From: a virus
Lineage: Duplodnaviria > Caudoviricetes
IMG/VR virus record: IMGVR_UViG_3300047400_000214
Span: 1 to 24,025 of that record
Strand: one strand, 5' to 3'
Length of the DNA stretch: 24,025 nt
Positions 12,187 through 22,921 of the stretch are shown one piece after another (the first letter of the stretch is position 1; each line of letters starts with the position of its first letter). The notes below the pieces were generated by a model that was not told where the DNA came from, did no database searches, and was given only the letters and a program-made list of their open reading frames with translations. Made by a program: the position numbers and the translations under genes.

Positions 12187-15100
12187 ATGGCCACTAAATA
12201 CTGGGCAGGGACATCAACTAGTACTAGCTGGAGTGTGGCATCTAACTGGTATACTCCTCCATCTACTCCTGGAGGCACTCCACCTGCACGTACTATACCT
12301 GCTAAAGGAGATGATATTATTTTTGATGATGCTTATTCTCCATATTCATGTGTTATTAATGTTAATACAGCTTGGATAGAAAGTATTAATTTTTCTAATT
12401 GGACAGGGTCTCTTTCTGGTGCTACATATGCATTAACTGTTATGGGAGCCGTAACTTTTCCTCCTTCTTCTTCAAGAGCAGCTACACAATTTTATGGATT
12501 TACAGGTATTTTTACATTGTATGATGCAGGTCATTATCTTACATCATCTGGAATATATTATCAAATAGCAACAAACGGGTATGTTTTAAATTGTAATTTT
12601 ACTATAGTGGGTGGAAATGATACCACCTATGAATTTATTGATTATTTTAGAACTGCAAAAGTAACACATCAAATTGGCACTTTAATATTTTCTGGAAAAA
12701 ATTCAAGCAATACATATAATGCTTCTATAGGATCTATTATAATGACCACTCTTCCTAATCCTGCTCCTGGTATTTCATATTATCAAAAAATTATTTGTCG
12801 TAGTTCTGATGACACTGTAAAAGCATTAGAATTAAATGGATTACTCACTGGAGGAAACGTATTAGAACTTTATAATAGTTATATTTTTGATATAGAAAAT
12901 ATTTATATTACAGGAAATGCTACAGGAGCAAGGTATATTAAAGGTAATACTAGTTTTAATCAATTAAAAAATGTATTCTTTAGACATACAGGAACTGCTG
13001 ATTTTGGTTATACAACAATAGCAACTGCAGCAGAAAGTACATATTTAGGCTCAACATCTGGAAGATTTAGTGTTGTAAAAGGAAGTTACTTAAAAAATGT
13101 TTATTTTGAAACAAATTCAGCAACATCATGGGTTTCTACAGGAACAACAGGAAATATTAACATATATGGAGGAACAGAAGAAGAACCAGGTGTAATTAAT
13201 TTTGGTACAATTGCAGGAAGATTGACTATTCCTAATTTAGTATTTACATCTGGATGTTACACAGAAGTGATAACTAATAGTAAAATAATTGCAAATAATG
13301 ATCTTGGTACTACTTTAAATACTACTTTTACAGTTGCAGGGGGGTATTTAAAGTTTATGGATGAAATATTACCGTCTGGAACTAATGCAAATAGTGCTGG
13401 ATATGGATTAACTAATCTATATATAGATGATGGCACTGTAGAACTTTTAGAAGATTCTCGGTTTCTTGGTATAAGAATAGGAGGAAATAGTTCTTTAAAT
13501 GGATATGCAGATCTTATAACTCATTATGGAAAGTTTTTAAAACTTTATTATGGAAATGATGTTGGAAAACTTACTATAGGACCATACAGCCATATAAATA
13601 CATTTAATTTAAACTGTAAGTTAACAGCTTCTAATGGAATAAATATAATTTCTACTAGTAAAACATTAAACTGTAATGATGGTATTGCATGGAGTGGGAC
13701 AAGTAGTGCCACTGACACAGGATTGTTAGTACGTGGAACTTTAAATTTAAAAAAAGGAAGTATTGAAGCTGCCACTGAAAATGGTGATATTCATGTATAT
13801 CAATATGGTACACTTAATGTTGGACAAGAAGTACAATATCCTTATTGGTCTTCAAATCATTCATATTCATTAGGAGATGTTGTAATTCCTACAACAATTC
13901 AAACTGGTTATTATTATGAAGCATCATATATCACTGGAGATGGAATGTCAGGTTCTACTGAACCTGGTTATTGGCCACTTGGTGGAAGTTTTGTTGATAA
14001 TGAAGTGACATGGGTGGCTAAAAATTTTGTTACAGAACCAATAGGTGATATCAGATTTATGGATTTATATACAGAAGGAAATGAACAAATTGAATCTGGT
14101 TCTAAAATAACAATTTATAATAATATAAATTCTCATAGAGCAATAAATATAACAGGAGGTTCGTATGTAGAATTTAATACATTTGCTGGTAAAGAATTAA
14201 AATCTAGTTATGCAAGTGCATCTTATGGATTAATTACTGTTTCTGGTGCTGGTACTAATATTACTATTCCTGCAAATATTAATAATAGAAAAGGACTACT
14301 TACATCAACAGTAGGATCACTTACAGTAACTGGAGCATTTACTTATATAGCATCAGCAGGAGATGTTGGATCTATTGGATCTATTGGAGCAGATGCTAAT
14401 AGCACTTTAACAATTATTCCACCTACTGGATATGATACTTTTAAAATAACAAGTGGTATATCTACAGCATATGGAAATATAAATATGGGTAGTTCTACAA
14501 ACCCTGCTAATTTTATTATACCAGGTTATTCTGGTATAACATTACCTTTTGCAACAATTACTTATTGGCCTTCTAATAGTGGAACAGTTTTAAGAACTTT
14601 TACAAAAGGTGAAAAAATATTTCCCACTATTCCAAATGGTTATTTTTATGAAGTTACTAATCCAGGAAGTTATCAGGGACCAGAACCTAATTGGCCAACT
14701 ATATTGGGTGATTCAATTACACTTGGAAGTTTAATATTTACTTGTAGAATTTCTAAACTTGAAATTTATGGAAGTCCAAATGTTTATTTTTTAACTGTTA
14801 GAAACTCTGGAAATATTATAACTCATGAAGGAGATTTTTTTACTACAAGAACATTAACATTTGATAGTAAAAAAAATGTTGATCCAGATACAAATACAGT
14901 TGTTCCATTTGTTTTTAAATCAGGATGTTCAATAGGAGTAGGTGGAATGACAATTACATCTGGATGGCTAGTTTTTGGAGAAACGGTGCCTACAGAACCA
15001 GCAAGTTTAGCTAATAAAAAATATGTAGTAACAAATTCAACTTCTATTACACACACTGATGGTAAAATAGATTTTAATTATGAGTTAAATACTACAGTGT

Positions 15101-18100
15101 CAGAAGGAAGTGTTTCTAGTAATTACACATTAACAAAAGGAGATTTAAGTTTTAATAATAAAAGTGTTATACGGAGCTTTTCATCAAGTAATAGTAATAC
15201 AAGATCTCTAACAATAGCTTCAAATAAATCACTATTTCTTACTGGTTTCTATACAGTATGGTTAACTAATACAGATCCATCATTAACTATAAATGCTTTA
15301 GGATCTTCAATAATACTTACACAATCAGCTGATTACAGAGCTCTTGATACTGTTTTTAATGGAGGATATAATATAAATGCTGTAATTGATTCAGCTACAA
15401 AAACAGTCACTTCATATAGTATTATAAATGATAACATTAAATTTGGAACATTAGAGTTTAGAAAAGCACCTAGTGGTGGTACTGGTAGAAATTCAATTCT
15501 TGGTTCTAATAAATTTGAAAATATTATTGATGGTAATGCAGCTGTTCCACAGGCTCATACATTGTCTATTGAAGAAAATCAAGTTCAAGTTGTAGATAAC
15601 TTTAGTGTTAATGGATTAAATGCATCTAATAAAATTACATTAAGTTCCTGTAGTGCAGCTAATGCTCAAACTTCAAATTTGCATTATTTAGTAAGATCTT
15701 TTGATTTAGAAAATAGTATAACTGTTAATTATTTAGATATTTATCATTCTGCTGTCACTCCAGCTGCTTCTGGAGGAAGTGGTATATGGAATGCTAAAAA
15801 CTCTGTTAATAGAACAACAACTCTACCAAATTATGGATGGAATTTTATAAATGTTAGATATTGGGTGGGAGGCACTGATACATGGAATGCTACAGCTGCT
15901 AATAAATGGTCTTCTGATAAAGGAGGAATTGGAGGATCCACTGCACCCACTGTAAATGATGATGTAATATTTGATGACACTCCTGCTCCGGAATGGCAAG
16001 CACGTACTGCTTATACAGCTAATGTATCAATTGTTTCACCTTCTAGTGCTGATGCAACAGGATATTATTATATGGCTGTAGCAACTACAGGTAACAATAA
16101 ATCAGGAGATACACATCCAAATTGGCCTAATACATATGATCCAGATAATCCATCAAATAATCAATTTGTTGATAATAATGTTACATGGGAAACTAGAAAA
16201 GCTACAGTTACTTTTGGAACAGTTAGTTGTATGGACTTAACATTTAAAGGAGAAAGTGGAGAGAATCATTTTATAGGAAATATTGTTTCAGCTTCTACAA
16301 CTACAGTTAGTGTTAATGGAACATTTACTTTAGGAGATGAAGGTAATTTAGATTATACAGCATATTTAGGAACTTTTACATTTACAGGTAGTTCATTAAA
16401 TAATCAAATATTCACTGGTGGAAGAACTGTAACATTTGGTTTAATATTCACTCAAGCAGTTGATAATGCCACTTATACTTTTCCTGAATATTTTGTAACA
16501 AGTCCACGTACTAGAGTGACAATTAATAGAGGAGTTGTTAAATTTGAAGGTGTATCTGATGTTGCAAGTGCAGATAATCCTAATGTATATTATAATGCAT
16601 CAATAGGTGGTATAACAACAACTGGTACAACTAAAAGAAAAATTATTTTTGATGATATTGAATTAACAGGTGGAGTGACATCAAACTGGGATTCTTGGAG
16701 CTCAGCTGTTTTTGTATCAGGAACACCATCAAGTGATACATTAATAATATCTAGAAATAATATAAGCCCTTCTACTAATCTTTCTAATATTCATATAGGA
16801 GGACCTATAAGTACAGGATATAAAAATGTAGTGGGAAATATAACATATGCTATTCCTGCAAATATTATTTTTTATGGGAGAGCTTCTATGGTGGGTTTTT
16901 GTACAACAGCTTCTTTAATAAAAAATGTATATTTTAGAATTGCTGAATCATCTAATAGCACAAATATTTCTTTAATAACAGGTAGTATAGTGGTAGATGA
17001 TTTAGATTTTGGATTAACATATGGAAATTGGAATCAAACAATAGGAGGAGGAAGTATCACTTTGAATAAAAGTATAACACTTTCTACAATTATGACATAC
17101 AGTAATCCTCAAGATTTAATAATTAGTAATACAGGGACAAATGTATGTAATGTAACTATGAATGGGATAGCATATAAAGGAGGAATTACTGTATCTGCTG
17201 GAGTTTTAAATTTTATAGAAGAAAATACAAGTATTGACTTTTTTACAGCATCTGGAAATTCTAATAAAACTATAAATTTTTTAGATGAAGAAGTAGGAAT
17301 TAGTACATTAATTTTAACGGGAGCTAATGCAAACACTCCTACATGGAATTTTCCTAGTACAATATCCAATTTAACATTTAATAACTTAAATAAAGCTATT
17401 ATTAAATTTACTAATGAAACAGCTACAGCTTTAATATTTGAAGGAGGAAATAGAACTTATGGCACTGTATGGTTTAATAGAAATAATTCATTAGCTAATG
17501 GTGTTATAACAATAAGAGGTAATAATACTTTTGATTATTTAAAAGATGGAAATTTATACACTGAAAATGGTAATCCAATTACAAATTTTACAGATATTCC
17601 AGCTCACACATTAGCTTTTGCAGATGGAAGTACTCAATATATAAAGAAAGACTTTTTAGTGAGTGGACAGGCTAATAAAAAAATAACTTTAGATAATGTT
17701 GGAACAGGAACAACTAATTTTACATTAGTAAATCAAGCTCCAAATCCTTATGTAAATTGTTATTTTTTAACTATCCAAAATTCAACAGTTAGTCCTTATA
17801 CTGCTCCAGATCCAAATGCAGATCCCCCAATACAAGAACAATTTTTTTGGTATGCTAATGCTAGTAATGTTGGTACAGGTCCTAATATAGGATGGCAAAT
17901 TCTTGATGATAGATATTGGATTGGTGGAACACCTGATGCTAATGGTTATTATCAATGGACTAATACTGCTAATTGGGCTCTTTCTGCAGATGGTACTGGT
18001 CCAAATGCTGGTGCTCCTACAACATCTTCTAATGCTTATTTTACAAGTTATTTTTCAGATCCTGTTACATTAAATGCAGTAGCAAATAGTAGTCAAGTTT

Positions 18101-19299
18101 TAAATTGTCATGATTTAATATGTAGTCATCCTGTACATGGAAATTACACTGGTATATTTAGAGGATATTTAGGATTTAGAGTTGGTTTTACTACACTTGG
18201 TAATATAGTATTAAGTCCTGATTTATTTAATGCTAGTGACCCATTAACTGGAAGTGCTTGGTATATAGGAGGAGCTAATAATAGCACTATAAATTTAGAT
18301 TTTAATAATAATCAAGTATCATTACCAATATTTCTTGGAAGAAGTGGAAACAATATTACATATAATTTAAAAAGCAATTTAACAGCAATAAATGATATAA
18401 AATTAAGTGGAACTTGTATTTTTAATACAGGATATATTGCAGATGGTGTTACAACTTCTTATGATATAATAGCTAATACTTTTACAACATATATCTCTAC
18501 TAATGTAACATTAAATTTATTTAATAGTAATATTTATTTAACTGGTTATTATAATGGATTTGGATGGCTTCCTTGGCAAATTCCAAATACAACAGTTACA
18601 GTTAATGCAGGAAATAGTAATATAGTGGTAACACCAATGGCCACTGGAACATTTAGAACAGGAGTTGCTTTTGAAGGAGGAGGACAAACTTATTATAATT
18701 TAACGTTTTTAAGGGATAGAGTAGCTAAAACATGGACTCCAGATACATATTATATTATAGATGATATAATAGTTCCTACAACTCCTAACGGATATTATTA
18801 TAGAGCATCTGATTTTGGAAAATCAGGAAACACAGAACCTGTATGGAATACAGATGTTGGAACCAATCCAACAACTGATTATACAATTTCATGGATTTGT
18901 ATGAGTAGTTTAGGAAACATTGTTAATCAAATAGCTATTTATGGAGATAACACTTTTAATAATATTACTGCAATAGGAGGAAAAGGATATAATTTTTATT
19001 TTATACCTGATACAAATCCTGGCACAATAACAAATACTGTTAATAAACTTAATATATCTGGTAGAGCAGGAGGTATTGTAACAATTGCTAATTATTATGG
19101 TGGCACTAGATGGAATATTGTTTCTTCATCTGCAACTGATATTAGTGTTTGTAATTATGTAAGTGTTGTTAATTCTGATGCCACTCCTCCAGATAAATTT
19201 TATGTGGGAGTTATGAGTAGTATAGTTAGTTCAACAGGATGGGGTAATTATGTTTCTCAAGGTAATAAAGAACTATTATTATTAGGAGTGGGACAATAA
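12187..19299 (+). CDS. Giant (2370 aa) repeat-containing virion adhesin/tailspike-like protein
   Basis: Uninterrupted ORF rich in T/N/G/S/I; three units each starting (K/R)YWxG and ending in a GW motif; four inserted Trp/Tyr-rich modules. Confidence 0.75.
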   Translation: MATKYWAGTSTSTSWSVASNWYTPPSTPGGTPPARTIPAKGDDIIFDDAYSPYSCVINVNTAWIESINFSNWTGSLSGATYALTVMGAVTFPPSSSRAATQFYGFTGIFTLYDAGHYLTSSGIYYQIATNGYVLNCNFTIVGGNDTTYEFIDYFRTAKVTHQIGTLIFSGKNSSNTYNASIGSIIMTTLPNPAPGISYYQKIICRSSDDTVKALELNGLLTGGNVLELYNSYIFDIENIYITGNATGARYIKGNTSFNQLKNVFFRHTGTADFGYTTIATAAESTYLGSTSGRFSVVKGSYLKNVYFETNSATSWVSTGTTGNINIYGGTEEEPGVINFGTIAGRLTIPNLVFTSGCYTEVITNSKIIANNDLGTTLNTTFTVAGGYLKFMDEILPSGTNANSAGYGLTNLYIDDGTVELLEDSRFLGIRIGGNSSLNGYADLITHYGKFLKLYYGNDVGKLTIGPYSHINTFNLNCKLTASNGINIISTSKTLNCNDGIAWSGTSSATDTGLLVRGTLNLKKGSIEAATENGDIHVYQYGTLNVGQEVQYPYWSSNHSYSLGDVVIPTTIQTGYYYEASYITGDGMSGSTEPGYWPLGGSFVDNEVTWVAKNFVTEPIGDIRFMDLYTEGNEQIESGSKITIYNNINSHRAINITGGSYVEFNTFAGKELKSSYASASYGLITVSGAGTNITIPANINNRKGLLTSTVGSLTVTGAFTYIASAGDVGSIGSIGADANSTLTIIPPTGYDTFKITSGISTAYGNINMGSSTNPANFIIPGYSGITLPFATITYWPSNSGTVLRTFTKGEKIFPTIPNGYFYEVTNPGSYQGPEPNWPTILGDSITLGSLIFTCRISKLEIYGSPNVYFLTVRNSGNIITHEGDFFTTRTLTFDSKKNVDPDTNTVVPFVFKSGCSIGVGGMTITSGWLVFGETVPTEPASLANKKYVVTNSTSITHTDGKIDFNYELNTTVSEGSVSSNYTLTKGDLSFNNKSVIRSFSSSNSNTRSLTIASNKSLFLTGFYTVWLTNTDPSLTINALGSSIILTQSADYRALDTVFNGGYNINAVIDSATKTVTSYSIINDNIKFGTLEFRKAPSGGTGRNSILGSNKFENIIDGNAAVPQAHTLSIEENQVQVVDNFSVNGLNASNKITLSSCSAANAQTSNLHYLVRSFDLENSITVNYLDIYHSAVTPAASGGSGIWNAKNSVNRTTTLPNYGWNFINVRYWVGGTDTWNATAANKWSSDKGGIGGSTAPTVNDDVIFDDTPAPEWQARTAYTANVSIVSPSSADATGYYYMAVATTGNNKSGDTHPNWPNTYDPDNPSNNQFVDNNVTWETRKATVTFGTVSCMDLTFKGESGENHFIGNIVSASTTTVSVNGTFTLGDEGNLDYTAYLGTFTFTGSSLNNQIFTGGRTVTFGLIFTQAVDNATYTFPEYFVTSPRTRVTINRGVVKFEGVSDVASADNPNVYYNASIGGITTTGTTKRKIIFDDIELTGGVTSNWDSWSSAVFVSGTPSSDTLIISRNNISPSTNLSNIHIGGPISTGYKNVVGNITYAIPANIIFYGRASMVGFCTTASLIKNVYFRIAESSNSTNISLITGSIVVDDLDFGLTYGNWNQTIGGGSITLNKSITLSTIMTYSNPQDLIISNTGTNVCNVTMNGIAYKGGITVSAGVLNFIEENTSIDFFTASGNSNKTINFLDEEVGISTLILTGANANTPTWNFPSTISNLTFNNLNKAIIKFTNETATALIFEGGNRTYGTVWFNRNNSLANGVITIRGNNTFDYLKDGNLYTENGNPITNFTDIPAHTLAFADGSTQYIKKDFLVSGQANKKITLDNVGTGTTNFTLVNQAPNPYVNCYFLTIQNSTVSPYTAPDPNADPPIQEQFFWYANASNVGTGPNIGWQILDDRYWIGGTPDANGYYQWTNTANWALSADGTGPNAGAPTTSSNAYFTSYFSDPVTLNAVANSSQVLNCHDLICSHPVHGNYTGIFRGYLGFRVGFTTLGNIVLSPDLFNASDPLTGSAWYIGGANNSTINLDFNNNQVSLPIFLGRSGNNITYNLKSNLTAINDIKLSGTCIFNTGYIADGVTTSYDIIANTFTTYISTNVTLNLFNSNIYLTGYYNGFGWLPWQIPNTTVTVNAGNSNIVVTPMATGTFRTGVAFEGGGQTYYNLTFLRDRVAKTWTPDTYYIIDDIIVPTTPNGYYYRASDFGKSGNTEPVWNTDVGTNPTTDYTISWICMSSLGNIVNQIAIYGDNTFNNITAIGGKGYNFYFIPDTNPGTITNTVNKLNISGRAGGIVTIANYYGGTRWNIVSSSATDISVCNYVSVVNSDATPPDKFYVGVMSSIVSSTGWGNYVSQGNKELLLLGVGQ

Positions 19300-19498: not shown

Positions 19499-19535
19499 AA
19501 AAAATGGGCCCTACATTACATAGGGCCCTATTTTT
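19499..19535. terminator. Bidirectional intrinsic terminator
   Basis: AAAAAAT-GGGCCCTA-N7-TAGGGCCC-TATTTTT between convergent gene blocks. Confidence 0.85.
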
Positions 19536-21051
19536 ATTTACCCACTATATTACCTTTTTCATCTACTTTTCTTATAGAAGAACCATTAAATATAACCACT
19601 TGACCTTTCTTAGAATATTCTTTAATAGTTTCATTATCAAAGTGATTAAATCTAGCTCCTTCTAAACCAATAAAGAAAGCTTTATCAGAATATGTATTAC
19701 AATGATCTTCTGCATCTGTAATTATTAGAGCATTTCTACCTTCTCTTTCTATATTCTGTACAGCAGCATTGATGGTTGTACCACCACCACAGTCCATACT
19801 AGCAATAGATAGAATGTCATTCTTACATTTCTTAACTCTTGTATCAAATGTATACACTTCATTAAGAAGATCCATGCTTTTTAGTTTAGCTGCAAAAGAC
19901 TTACAGAAATCCATTCTACTAATATAACCTCCGTCTGCATTTTTTGCTCCACATGTACTAGACATAGATCCTGATCTATCTATATAGATGTCAATTTTAC
20001 CTATAGCTCTAGTGTCTTTCACTTGTAAATCTTCAGCAAAGATTTTTCTAAGCTTGGGATGAAGTAGTTCATAGTCTTCCAGGCCAGCTATATTGTCTGA
20101 ATTAAACAAGTCTTCATATGTAGTTTCTTTCTTAGAGCTAAAATAACTAACAGACTTATCTAGAAGTTTTTTAATAGTCTCTTTAAGAGATCCCATAGAC
20201 ATACTAATATTCTCTAGTTTAGCTGCAACCTGTCTGATATAATCCGGACTAAGTTTAGCAGCTCCATTAGACTGCCCTGGTTCATTTACATTCTCAAACA
20301 TCTGTTCTTGAATGTCTTGATCCATAGCATCATCCATCTCTTTACATAAATCTTGAGCTTTCTGCATAGCATCTTCAAGCATATTCTTACCTTGTGTACT
20401 ATCTAACATCTTCTTCATACCTTCATCAGCTCCATCTGAATCAAAATCAGAATCTCCATTTAGACCATTCTTAACATTCTGAGAAGCATCTGGATCTACA
20501 AAATCCATAATAGTCATCCGGGCAACAAAATAAGCTAGTATATTTCTAGCAAAGATTGCTGACTTAAGATTAGAATTCTCAGACATAATCTTACCTACAG
20601 GATTATTAGCTTTCTCTAAGAACTTAAACTTGGTGTTGTTAATATCAGTTCTTTCTTCAAAATCAAGATTTTCTATTTTATTATAGAACATCTTGAATAT
20701 ATCTGCAGGCATGTGTTTAGGAAACTTCTTATAGTTTTCTATAAACTTGGTATGGAAGTCATTCATGTTTGGTTTCTTACCTTCTTCAAGTTTCTTAAAG
20801 TCTGTAGTTTTGTTAAACTTATTATAGATATCCTGTACAGTTTTACCATCCATCATATAGGATTGCATAATAGCATCAAGTCTATTCTGATCTAGATAGT
20901 GCAGGTGTGGTTTAATAAGATCAGGCTTTTTATAGAAGTTTAGTTTACCAAACAAGCCTCCATCATTTTCTTTATAATAGGATTTTATTTCTCCCTTTTT
21001 TACTTTCTCAAGAATGGTATATACATTCTTATATTTTCTAGGACTTGCCAT
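19534..21051 (-). CDS. VWA (MIDAS) domain protein, ViaA/CoxE-like partner of MoxR ATPase
   Basis: C-terminal IYIDRSGSM (DxSxS), GGGTTI, LIITDAED; helical N-terminus; directly downstream of a MoxR-type ATPase. Confidence 0.85.
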   Translation of the reverse strand: MASPRKYKNVYTILEKVKKGEIKSYYKENDGGLFGKLNFYKKPDLIKPHLHYLDQNRLDAIMQSYMMDGKTVQDIYNKFNKTTDFKKLEEGKKPNMNDFHTKFIENYKKFPKHMPADIFKMFYNKIENLDFEERTDINNTKFKFLEKANNPVGKIMSENSNLKSAIFARNILAYFVARMTIMDFVDPDASQNVKNGLNGDSDFDSDGADEGMKKMLDSTQGKNMLEDAMQKAQDLCKEMDDAMDQDIQEQMFENVNEPGQSNGAAKLSPDYIRQVAAKLENISMSMGSLKETIKKLLDKSVSYFSSKKETTYEDLFNSDNIAGLEDYELLHPKLRKIFAEDLQVKDTRAIGKIDIYIDRSGSMSSTCGAKNADGGYISRMDFCKSFAAKLKSMDLLNEVYTFDTRVKKCKNDILSIASMDCGGGTTINAAVQNIEREGRNALIITDAEDHCNTYSDKAFFIGLEGARFNHFDNETIKEYSKKGQVVIFNGSSIRKVDEKGNIVGK

Positions 21052-21172
21052 CAATAAGTTTTTTAGCTAAGTTATCAATTTCTATCTGAGCAGCCTTATA
21101 GAGGTCTTCCAATGAAGTTCCAGGAGAAATAAATTCTCCTGGATTCACTGGCTTAAGAAAACCCCTTCTTAA
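21038..21172 (-). other. Open -1 frame (44 codons) with long hairpin bridging ATPase stop and VWA start; frameshift extension or 36-aa GTG-start ORF (21148-21038)
   Basis: LRRGFLKPVNPGEFISPGTSLEDLYKAAQIEIDNLAKKLIDGKS*; perfect 10-bp inverted repeat at 21119-21128/21134-21143 with further outer pairing. Confidence 0.5.
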
Positions 21173-22548
21173 AAAGCTTGAGAAGCATCATTCATTGGTG
21201 CTGCTTCTTCAATCATATTATCAAATTCTTCAGAAGATTGATAGTCTTTACGTGCAGGATGGTTCTCAAGAACTACTTGCATAGACATTTCTATTTCTTC
21301 CACTTGACTTTGGTCCATAACACCTCTAGTGGTATATGCATTAATCAAACTCTCAATCTCTGCCACAGCTAGCTCAAGAGCTTCATTATTACTGTGAGAG
21401 TATAACATATCCACCTTAGACATCACTGCCTTAATCTCTGGACTCATTAGTTTATTCTGTAATTCAGAAGCTGCATTCTGATTAATCATAATCTGTGCAG
21501 TCTTTACAAGAGCCTTATCTATACTAATATCCCAGATATAGCTTACAGCTTTAGTAAGTTTAGGTACAAAAGTTAAAGTTCTGTCTGAGCTCTTTGTATA
21601 ACCCACTTCTAAATACTTATCTAACTTATTACCTACAACTTCTACACTGTTTAGTTCAGCATCATTTGGAATTCCAATTTTAAAGCTCTCTTTATAGTTA
21701 CGAGCACCTTTAGAGTAATACTTACTCATATCACCTGCAGATACACGGTTAACCGTCATCTTCAACATAAATCTATCCCAGAAAGGACTACCTATCTCAT
21801 CCTTAGGAATTTCATTACATGTAGCTACAAATAGCTTCCATTTACAAGGAATCTTGTGCTTACCATTGAAGAGAAACTTCTCATTCATAACACCCAACAT
21901 AGCATTTCTAATAGCTGAACTAGCTTTGTCCACCTCATTGATGATGACAATATCAGCATCTGCTATAGGAGTGTTAAGATCATACTTATTCTCTGTAAAC
22001 AACTTCTCAAGATCTGGCATACCCTTAATCTCTGATGCTTTAGTGCCCTCATCAGTTTCTAGAACATAAATCTTGTTCATGAAGTCAGCTTGTGTCATCT
22101 TACCATCTCTGTTCAACCAAGCTTTTGCATAATCTATAATAGTTTTGGTCTTTGCTACACCTGGCTCACCCACTAGTAATAATGGTAATCCTGTAGCTTC
22201 TGCTAATGCTAGCATCTTAAATACTTCTTCCTTATTAATTAAGGAAGTTTCAATCTGACGTACTTCTTGAGTAGTCTTTTTTGTAATGGTTTTAGTTGAT
22301 TTAGCCATTTTGTTTAAATTAAGGGGTTTTACTTCTGGTTTGTTTGTAACTATATTAAACTGCTGTCCATAAGATGGATGTTTAGGAGACAGTATTTCAT
22401 GTGGTAGAACTATACGAGCACTAGGAATCCATCTATGTATACCAGCTGCTGTTACATTTATGGTATACATGTTACCATCATTACCTTGTTTATATGTGCC
22501 AAATTCATACCATGTAGCACTATCTGTTGGACTTGGTCTTTCTTTCAT
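21169..22548 (-). CDS. RavA/MoxR-family AAA+ ATPase
   Basis: Walker A GEPGVAKT, Walker B-like VIINEVDKA, NAMLGVMNE, sensor ATCNEIP, FWDRF. Start at 22548 (4 nt after the upstream stop) or internal ATG 22308. Confidence 0.88.
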   Translation of the reverse strand: MKERPSPTDSATWYEFGTYKQGNDGNMYTINVTAAGIHRWIPSARIVLPHEILSPKHPSYGQQFNIVTNKPEVKPLNLNKMAKSTKTITKKTTQEVRQIETSLINKEEVFKMLALAEATGLPLLLVGEPGVAKTKTIIDYAKAWLNRDGKMTQADFMNKIYVLETDEGTKASEIKGMPDLEKLFTENKYDLNTPIADADIVIINEVDKASSAIRNAMLGVMNEKFLFNGKHKIPCKWKLFVATCNEIPKDEIGSPFWDRFMLKMTVNRVSAGDMSKYYSKGARNYKESFKIGIPNDAELNSVEVVGNKLDKYLEVGYTKSSDRTLTFVPKLTKAVSYIWDISIDKALVKTAQIMINQNAASELQNKLMSPEIKAVMSKVDMLYSHSNNEALELAVAEIESLINAYTTRGVMDQSQVEEIEMSMQVVLENHPARKDYQSSEEFDNMIEEAAPMNDASQAF

Positions 22549-22552
22549 ATTC

Positions 22553-22921
22553 TTATAGGTTTGCAAAGATGTCTGCTGCTTCGGCTGTAGCATCTGAGGT
22601 ATCAATTCCCACTTCTGATTGGATACTATCCACTGGTACCACTGGTTTCCTATCTTCATTTGTTGTCCTAGAAGTTGTGGATTCTTTGGTGTTGTTAGTT
22701 GTAACATTTTTAGTGTCATCTATAATGTTAAAGATTGTGATATTAGTTTCTGCATCCTTTAAAGAAGGATGTTTTCTAATAGCCATAATCTGAGCAGGGT
22801 TAGCACCATACTTAGTTTCTATACTTCCATAGCCAAGATCATCTTTCTTAAACCATGTATAACCTGAATTCAGGTCATTGATTAATTGACTTACTGTTAA
22901 GTCTACTTTATTTACTGCCAT
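22553..22921 (-). CDS. Hypothetical protein
   Basis: ORF filling the gap between UNG and the ATPase; compact N-terminal domain and Thr/acidic tail; ATG 22921 preferred. Confidence 0.7.
   Translation of the reverse strand: MAVNKVDLTVSQLINDLNSGYTWFKKDDLGYGSIETKYGANPAQIMAIRKHPSLKDAETNITIFNIIDDTKNVTTNNTKESTTSRTTNEDRKPVVPVDSIQSEVGIDTSDATAEAADIFANL

Follow-up and report, generated by a model that had tools for sequence, protein, structure and literature searches.

Where does translation of a phage MoxR ATPase gene end: at its own stop codon or, for some ribosomes, further downstream, just inside the gene for its VWA-domain partner? The question is raised by the virus contig IMGVR_UViG_3300047400_000214 (Caudoviricetes), the whole of which, 24,025 nucleotides (nt) in length, was analysed and is called the window here. 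An initial annotation, made from its letters alone, had proposed that a programmed -1 frameshift at the ATPase-VWA junction yields a C-terminally extended ATPase and sets the ratio of the two proteins. We consider it likely that the slippery site, a stop-bearing spacer of 5-7 nt and a hairpin together cause a minority of ribosomes to shift by -1 at the last Phe codon, adding a 44-residue tail. The arrangement itself, its conservation, selection on the synonymous positions of the site, covariation of the stem and the open -1 frame are all shown by the sequences, and the strong evidence for the frameshift is comparative rather than drawn from the window alone. The elements in question are the following.

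21169-22719, minus strand: reading frame of a MoxR (RavA-like) AAA+ ATPase, identified by Pfam, Foldseek and predicted structure.
21172-21178, minus strand: predicted shift site A_GCT_TTT, with the working core T_TTT at 21175-21172.
21167-21171, minus strand: spacer made up of the stop codon TAA and 2 nt, giving 5 nt from site to stem and 6 nt to the first G-C pair.
21100-21166, minus strand: three-helix stem-loop, the predicted frameshift stimulator, supported by folding and covariation.
21038-21172, minus strand: -1 frame of 44 codons plus TAG, encoding the predicted C-terminal tail of ~4.8 kDa.
19534-21051, minus strand: VWA-domain partner of 505 residues, in the 0 frame relative to the ATPase.

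In the window, the junction is as the initial annotation had described it. The ATPase ends GCT TTT TAA (stop at 21171-21169), the hairpin begins two nt past the stop at 21166, five nt past the last sense codon, and the -1 frame stays open for 44 codons. It stops at 21040-21038, 14 nt into VWA, whose ATG is at 21051; the 0 frame closes after 7 sense codons and the +1 frame after 5. The site was also correctly recognized as non-canonical, being a T_TTT tetramer and no heptamer. Folding reproduces the hairpin, with an outer (21166-21157/21109-21100), a middle (21150-21144/21116-21110) and a core helix (21143-21134/21128-21119), at -44.8 kcal/mol (z -2.15; 2 of 200 shuffles are as stable); the pairs of the outer stem have probabilities of 0.82-0.99 in nine cases out of ten and 0.35 in the tenth. 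The tail overlaps the VWA start by 14 nt, and its S-L-E-D-L motif opens a likely amphipathic helix; Pfam and PHROGs searches with it returned no match. Upstream of the shift site, no Shine-Dalgarno-like stimulator was seen in the window, and the open -1 frame alone is only modestly unusual (P = 0.041, 5000 dinucleotide shuffles).

The comparative data are more telling. Six protein-query scans and one pattern scan returned 325 records, including the window, with a recognisable ATPase end; because each scan gives no more than 80 loci, the sample is biased to closer relatives. Once records with less than 200 nt downstream had been dropped and duplicates merged, there were 116 distinct junctions, which fall into 88 non-redundant clusters at 85% junction identity; a scan with a distant ATPase as query gave one further usable locus. 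We defined a cassette from predicted structure alone, as a long stem starting at most 9 nt after the last codon, and found one in 41 clusters. Of the others, 32 have a simple hairpin and 5 a very short spacer, and in 10 no stem is predicted with confidence. The sequence T_TTN lies directly before the stop in 37/41 cassettes compared to 7/47 other clusters (P = 5e-13), and a canonical heptamer is present in 24 and 2, respectively. Stem onset lies 6-7 nt past the last codon in 30/41 cassettes, and the -1 frame crosses the hairpin without a stop in 28/41, against 3 for the 0 frame, 1 for the +1 frame and an expectation of 7.05 from shuffles. Of the remaining 13, seven carry a tail that runs for 38-43 codons and stops just short of the 3' arm; in the other six (L038, L062, L135, L141, L155 and L240), the -1 frame closes early. 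On a tree from which the ATPase tail was trimmed and L329 left out, the cassette state changes 26 times, and site, stem and frame tend to be lost together (L021, L155).

Most relatives carry a canonical heptamer, C_CCT_TTY, at the shift site, the A_GCT_TTT of the window being found in 3/39 open-cassette clusters; the slippery run, whose presence in relatives the initial annotation had proposed to check, is therefore retained, usually in a stronger form. The ATPases often end in an acidic tail with Pro-Phe, whether a cassette follows or not, and the Pro codon separates the two situations: where the terminal residues are Pro-Phe, it is CCT in 28/28 open-frame loci (23 with the full C_CCT_TTY) and in 4/21 closed ones. 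Internal Pro-Phe pairs, used as a control, have CCT in 33/88 cases and the full heptamer in 1/88, and the background usage of CCT is 47%. This comparison shows, at the level of sequence, that the synonymous positions of the shift site are under selection. Other gene ends in the same loci have T_TTY in 3/383 cases, none with a long stem. In L007, where the stop is shifted by one codon, T_TTT still lies 6 nt from the stem, a geometry that suggests that the stop codon is not the trigger. C_CC.U_UU.Y belongs to the most efficient heptamer class in E. coli assays, and U_UU.Y tetramers shift in E. coli when given a stimulator, about tenfold less (PMC4066793); the 3' stimulator of -1 signals stands at a distance of 5-9 nt (PMC5009743). 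The sequence features expected of a -1 signal, namely T_TTN or a heptamer, a 3' stem 5-9 nt away, an open -1 frame and restricted synonymous variation, were found here. As the site of the window is a tetramer and not a heptamer, its shift efficiency is probably low.

The stem itself is conserved as a structure. The 18 sequences of the window's family share a 24-pair consensus, with 99.3% of cells paired and two-sided changes in 7/24 pairs, a value reached by none of 500 shuffles and by no slid control, although the consensus was derived from the very sequences that were then scored. Two other families have a basal stem of different sequence at the same distance. With a covariance model built on the window's family, no second copy rose above noise in the window (E 0.61), and weak matches were obtained at four junctions belonging to three other cassette families (E 0.0003-0.002). 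Covariation, which the initial annotation had suggested testing, is thus borne out for the window's family. A second hairpin that had been put forward, burying the stop codon and acting as a switch, fared worse.

21153-21172, minus strand: competing small hairpin, weak and not conserved.

It can be drawn but reaches only -4.8 kcal/mol, with its pairs below 0.01 probability, and folds in 8/17 family members at -3.3 to -4.8 kcal/mol; a two-state RNA switch was rejected, since the competing fold makes up <1% of the ensemble and is not conserved. A long, conserved and covarying stem would also be expected if the hairpin acted purely as RNA, whether as an attenuator, as a site for RNase III or as a stability element, and the open frame were incidental, and simple hairpins do occupy the same spacer in cassette-free relatives. 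This explanation, which we regard as improbable, leaves the association with a slippery site, the 6-7 nt distance, the frame-keeping indels and the avoidance of stops past the stem unaccounted for; moreover, the junction has no terminator call and no Rfam match, the latter up to an E-value of 5. An additional RNA-level role of the hairpin may nevertheless exist alongside frameshifting. An intrinsic terminator at the window junction was rejected because there was no such call and only 3 T of 8 follow the core stem. The cassette-free hairpins, in contrast, mostly look like terminators: at least five T of eight follow the hairpin in 31/40 of them compared to 11/35 cassettes.

Several individual junctions are of note. 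Five junctions with spacers of 22-23 nt (L028, L126, L130, L134, L142) resemble clean cassette deletions that retain T_CCT_TTY and the end of the 3' arm. The terminator-like hairpins at L004:2927-2994 and L011:1567-1642 resemble, by eye, an inverted copy of the cassette top hairpin, hinting at a possible common origin of the two. At L297:3105-3431 and in L300, a 324-nt spacer holds a small extra frame between the ATPase and VWA genes.

Selection is visible beyond the site and the stem, in the -1 frame itself. In five families, 22/25 internal gaps have a length divisible by three, not counting the 1-nt offsets of L038 and L141 at the edge of the alignment, and the same is true of the spacer in 18/18 members of the window's family. 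Past the hairpin, 17 sequences of this family (L131 left out) have 0 stops in 232 codons of the -1 frame, compared to 22/233 and 39/219 in the other frames. In a position-permutation test on 33 spanning-tree edges, with six divergent or decayed members left out, the pooled synonymous fraction in the -1 frame was 0.26 against 0.18 under the null (P = 0.0005), and conservative replacements were also in excess; both effects are confined to the -1 frame and driven by two families. Tails of four families share a late Asp-Leu motif, which is partly dictated by the 3' arm of the stem.

A coding signal of this kind might also come from an independent small gene, with the slippery appearance being a by-product of a Phe-terminated protein. 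The start codon available to it in the window is an in-frame GTG.

21146-21148, minus strand: GTG at tail codon 9, a possible independent start, predicted to be fully paired in the stem.

ATG or GTG stands at that position in 18/18 members of the window's family, and L038 and L141 retain the peptide in other frames. The codon is, however, predicted to be paired in 17/18, and its A/G variation fits pairing with U. Upstream of it, -1 frame stops occur in 0/18 sequences as opposed to 13/18 and 18/18 for the other frames, and two indels there keep the frame, so that coding-type conservation, which the initial annotation had wanted examined on this side of the GTG, does start before it and the -1 frame is kept open in relatives. 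Furthermore, 13/53 tails have neither ATG nor GTG, the first start in the QGY family comes at codon 24-29 in 12/13 members, and the CCT bias and the fixed spacer would remain unexplained. We therefore give the small gene a very low probability.

The lowest probability of all goes to other forms of recoding: transcriptional slippage, stop readthrough or ribosome hopping. The window does have a run of five T, the VWA gene is in the 0 frame in 18/18 members of its family, and L038 is compatible with a +1 shift at TTT-T. But many relatives have C_CCT_TTC, with only three consecutive T, a 0-frame stop lies inside the hairpin in 38/41 cassettes, a matching Phe landing codon was not seen before the VWA start of the window, and the coding signal sits in the -1 frame. 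Taken together, the sequence comparisons leave the C-terminally extended ATPase made by a -1 shift, as initially proposed, well supported: relatives keep the slippery run and the open -1 frame, conservation sets in ahead of the possible start codon, and none of the computational checks turned out against it.

A number of observations weigh against -1 frameshifting as the explanation, or limit what can be concluded from the data in its favour. L153 has the open frame and the stem but no slippery site; in L062, heptamer and stem are both present and the frame is closed. Tetramers in E. coli gave 0.26-5.6% at most and required a strong stimulator (PMC4066793). The P-values of the site and codon associations ignore relatedness; on well-supported branches there are 7 independent pairs, with a mean of 5.2 concordant and 0.0 discordant and a median P of 0.06, which becomes 0.03 when only Phe-ending genes are considered. 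The cassette is dispensable, given that 47/88 clusters are without it, and a complete one is also missing from the 11 junctions placed farthest out on the midpoint-drawn tree. Neither the window's own family (P = 0.35) nor the five-member LGxGLW family shows a significant amino-acid signal, and, because decayed members were left out, the count of zero new stops in that analysis is circular. The tails differ widely, with one invariant Leu among 24 aligned. Finally, a related peptide is intact in the +1 frame in L038 (4087-4181) and in the 0 frame behind a stop in L141 (2590-2686), frames that are candidates for decay or, in L038, for a change to +1 shifting at TTT-T.

If -1 frameshifting is nonetheless the correct explanation, a ribosome would pause at the stem, positioned at the mRNA entry, while decoding the last two codons, tRNA-Phe would re-pair on the overlapping TTT, and the shifted ribosome would bypass the stop and read through the hairpin. 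The major product would be an ATPase whose acidic tail stays free and has Phe as its last residue, and the minor one an ATPase in which an added helical segment replaces the free terminal Phe, so that mixed hexamers would form. Given frameshifting, we think that the tail peptide itself is the most likely selected product, at about an even chance, with coupling to the VWA gene inferred to rank second, close behind.

The case for coupling depends on the downstream gene. The VWA partner is helical in its N-terminal part and has a modelled C-terminal VWA fold with an invariant MIDAS, or metal ion-dependent adhesion site (D358-x-S-x-S, T425, D446). A Pfam search of the protein gave no VWA hit, and the assignment draws on invariant columns, the model, Atlas neighbours and Foldseek matches to VWA domains, the top ones being Ro60/TROVE with TM-scores near 0.2. 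If coupling is what is selected, the frameshift would be real and its tail a by-product: shifted ribosomes would stop at the VWA start, reinitiate and fix a low VWA:ATPase ratio, which we see as possible while preferring other outcomes. Tails do cluster at the VWA ATG, 46/48 ending within -25 to +23 nt of it, and in 18/18 members of the window's family they run 11-23 nt into VWA despite spacers of 99-144 nt; this family avoids stops without significant amino-acid selection. The T-rich hairpins of cassette-free junctions would be a second possible way to lower VWA, and a NorQ hexamer binds one NorD (PMC9976466). On the other hand, 8/48 tails end >7 nt before the ATG, amino-acid-level selection is significant in two families, and any frame that crosses a hairpin ending near the ATG would stop nearby anyway. 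The VWA ATG lies 3-67 nt past the hairpin, in an A-rich leader that resembles other gene starts of the window, and may initiate alone. Because of this position outside the hairpin, coupling is plausible but unproven: of the initially proposed control of ATPase:VWA stoichiometry through ribosome delivery, the ending of tails at the VWA start holds, and the dependence of the VWA start on delivered ribosomes is called into question. A frameshift fusion of ATPase and VWA was rejected, since VWA is read in the 0 frame and the -1 frame ends 14 nt after the VWA start. Four junctions have VWA in the -1 frame (L067, L069, L114, L171), none of them with T_TTY or a long stem, and among the 116 junctions none has VWA in that frame behind a slippery site and stem.

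Both products may matter at once. In a more speculative version, which we hold only tentatively and rate a little below coupling alone, the junction would be a swappable recoding cassette: a minority of subunits in mixed MoxR hexamers would carry a docking helix, the same ribosomes would be handed to VWA, and cassette-free lineages would use a terminator instead. One signal would then set both tether and adaptor dose.

The ATPase gene supports its assignment to the MoxR AAA+ group, with a MoxR profile (bpMoxR, E 2.5e-24; AAA_5, E 2.2e-9), a RavA-like fold (RavA provides the top Foldseek matches of the model) and a neighbouring MIDAS-bearing VWA protein. Its core starts at 22308 (379 residues), preceded by an in-frame N-terminal module from an ATG at 22548, and residues 356-379, with predicted local distance difference test (pLDDT) values <50, form the disordered acidic tail with its terminal Phe. 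Variable in-frame N-terminal modules before a conserved second Met were observed at 22309-22548 (minus strand) and in P0001-P0045; they comprise an R-P-S-P...W module and often a second one of ~80 residues, total lengths being 372-553 residues, and long and short ATPase forms from two starts are possible.

In mechanism, the junction is a standard -1 signal. Like those of the IS3 family and dnaX, it has an efficient-class motif in most relatives, a 5-9 nt spacer and a 3' stem-loop (PMC4066793, PMC5009743), but it differs in its position, at the extreme 3' end of the gene for a phage chaperone ATPase, and in having the stop codon within the spacer. Candidates for a reversed-type dnaX (e.g. of Chlorobium) likewise give a short and a C-terminally extended AAA+ ATPase, with the 0-frame stop right after the site, so that only shifting yields the longer form (PMC5009743, PMC3711429); they differ in ATPase clade, in their poly-A site, for which transcriptional slippage is favoured (PMC3711429), and in an extension that amounts to a third of the protein as opposed to ~40 residues here. 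In chlD of the Mg/Co chelatases, a -1 shift behind the ATPase module of the chelatase lets a single locus make two products, at 10-63% when tested in E. coli (PMC3711429, PMC9227772), but there the shift makes the full medium subunit, ATPase plus VWA (PMC10186761), whereas here it would add a short tail only. A minority C-terminal extension by -1 shifting is also made in phage T7/T3 gene 10, Lactobacillus A2, Listeria A118 and the tail chaperone G/GT (PMC5009743); those are virion or tail-assembly proteins that gain folded domains, unlike the MoxR ATPase with its short, variable tail. Adjacent genes for a MoxR ATPase and a MIDAS VWA protein are shared with RavA-ViaA, NorQ-NorD and pairs of jumbo phages and haloviruses, and the available parts of the corresponding papers do not mention recoding at the junction (PMC9976466, PMC7824862, PMC7911831); the slippery site located in a halovirus is in its tail chaperone gene. 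We found no description of a frameshift in a phage MoxR or AAA+ gene, although the cluster tables of PMC4066793 and PMC3711429 could list one. A short tail that ends where VWA begins, in alternation with a terminator-like hairpin, seems to be a new variant. If the frameshift is real, a non-structural phage gene, for a MoxR chaperone ATPase, would join the short list of phage frameshift targets, with a tail that gene callers miss entirely. The family would amount to a natural experiment, as dozens of close relatives have the cassette, lack it or show it in decay. It would also be a compact case in which recoding, with the two proteins left unfused, might set the subunit composition or the adaptor dose of MoxR-VWA machines, a counterpart of chlD-type fusions.

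The phage family that carries this junction is one of uncultured freshwater phages. The window is a whole 24-kb contig, which also encodes a primase, a DnaB-like helicase, a uracil-DNA glycosylase and a GH19 lysin; the related sequences are contigs from IMG/VR and metagenomes, the longest of ~130 kb, and its own sequence is present in runs of aquatic and freshwater origin. A cultured relative was not found, the best GenBank phage matches covering 26% of the ATPase at <40% identity. The sole GTDB match, a 9-kb contig in a Micavibrio bin, has a cassette-free junction and was not used as host evidence. Gene starts of the window are without Shine-Dalgarno motifs, as is typical of Bacteroidota. In metatranscriptomes, four runs of one study have contigs over ATPase and VWA, one of them spanning 21086-21714; such contigs cannot show strand, level or true transcription, and so nothing was inferred from depth. 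One RNA contig of run X6 agrees with the window as far as 21107, after which come 29 letters unrelated to it; it is either a strain variant of the tail or a chimera.

Elsewhere in the window, a protein of 2370 residues in which short motifs recur is encoded at 12187-19299 (plus strand), with several fibre-like genes upstream; it is probably an adhesin or a tail fibre. The convergent gene blocks are separated by one further feature.

19506-19528, usable on both strands: terminator-like hairpin directly 3' of the VWA gene.

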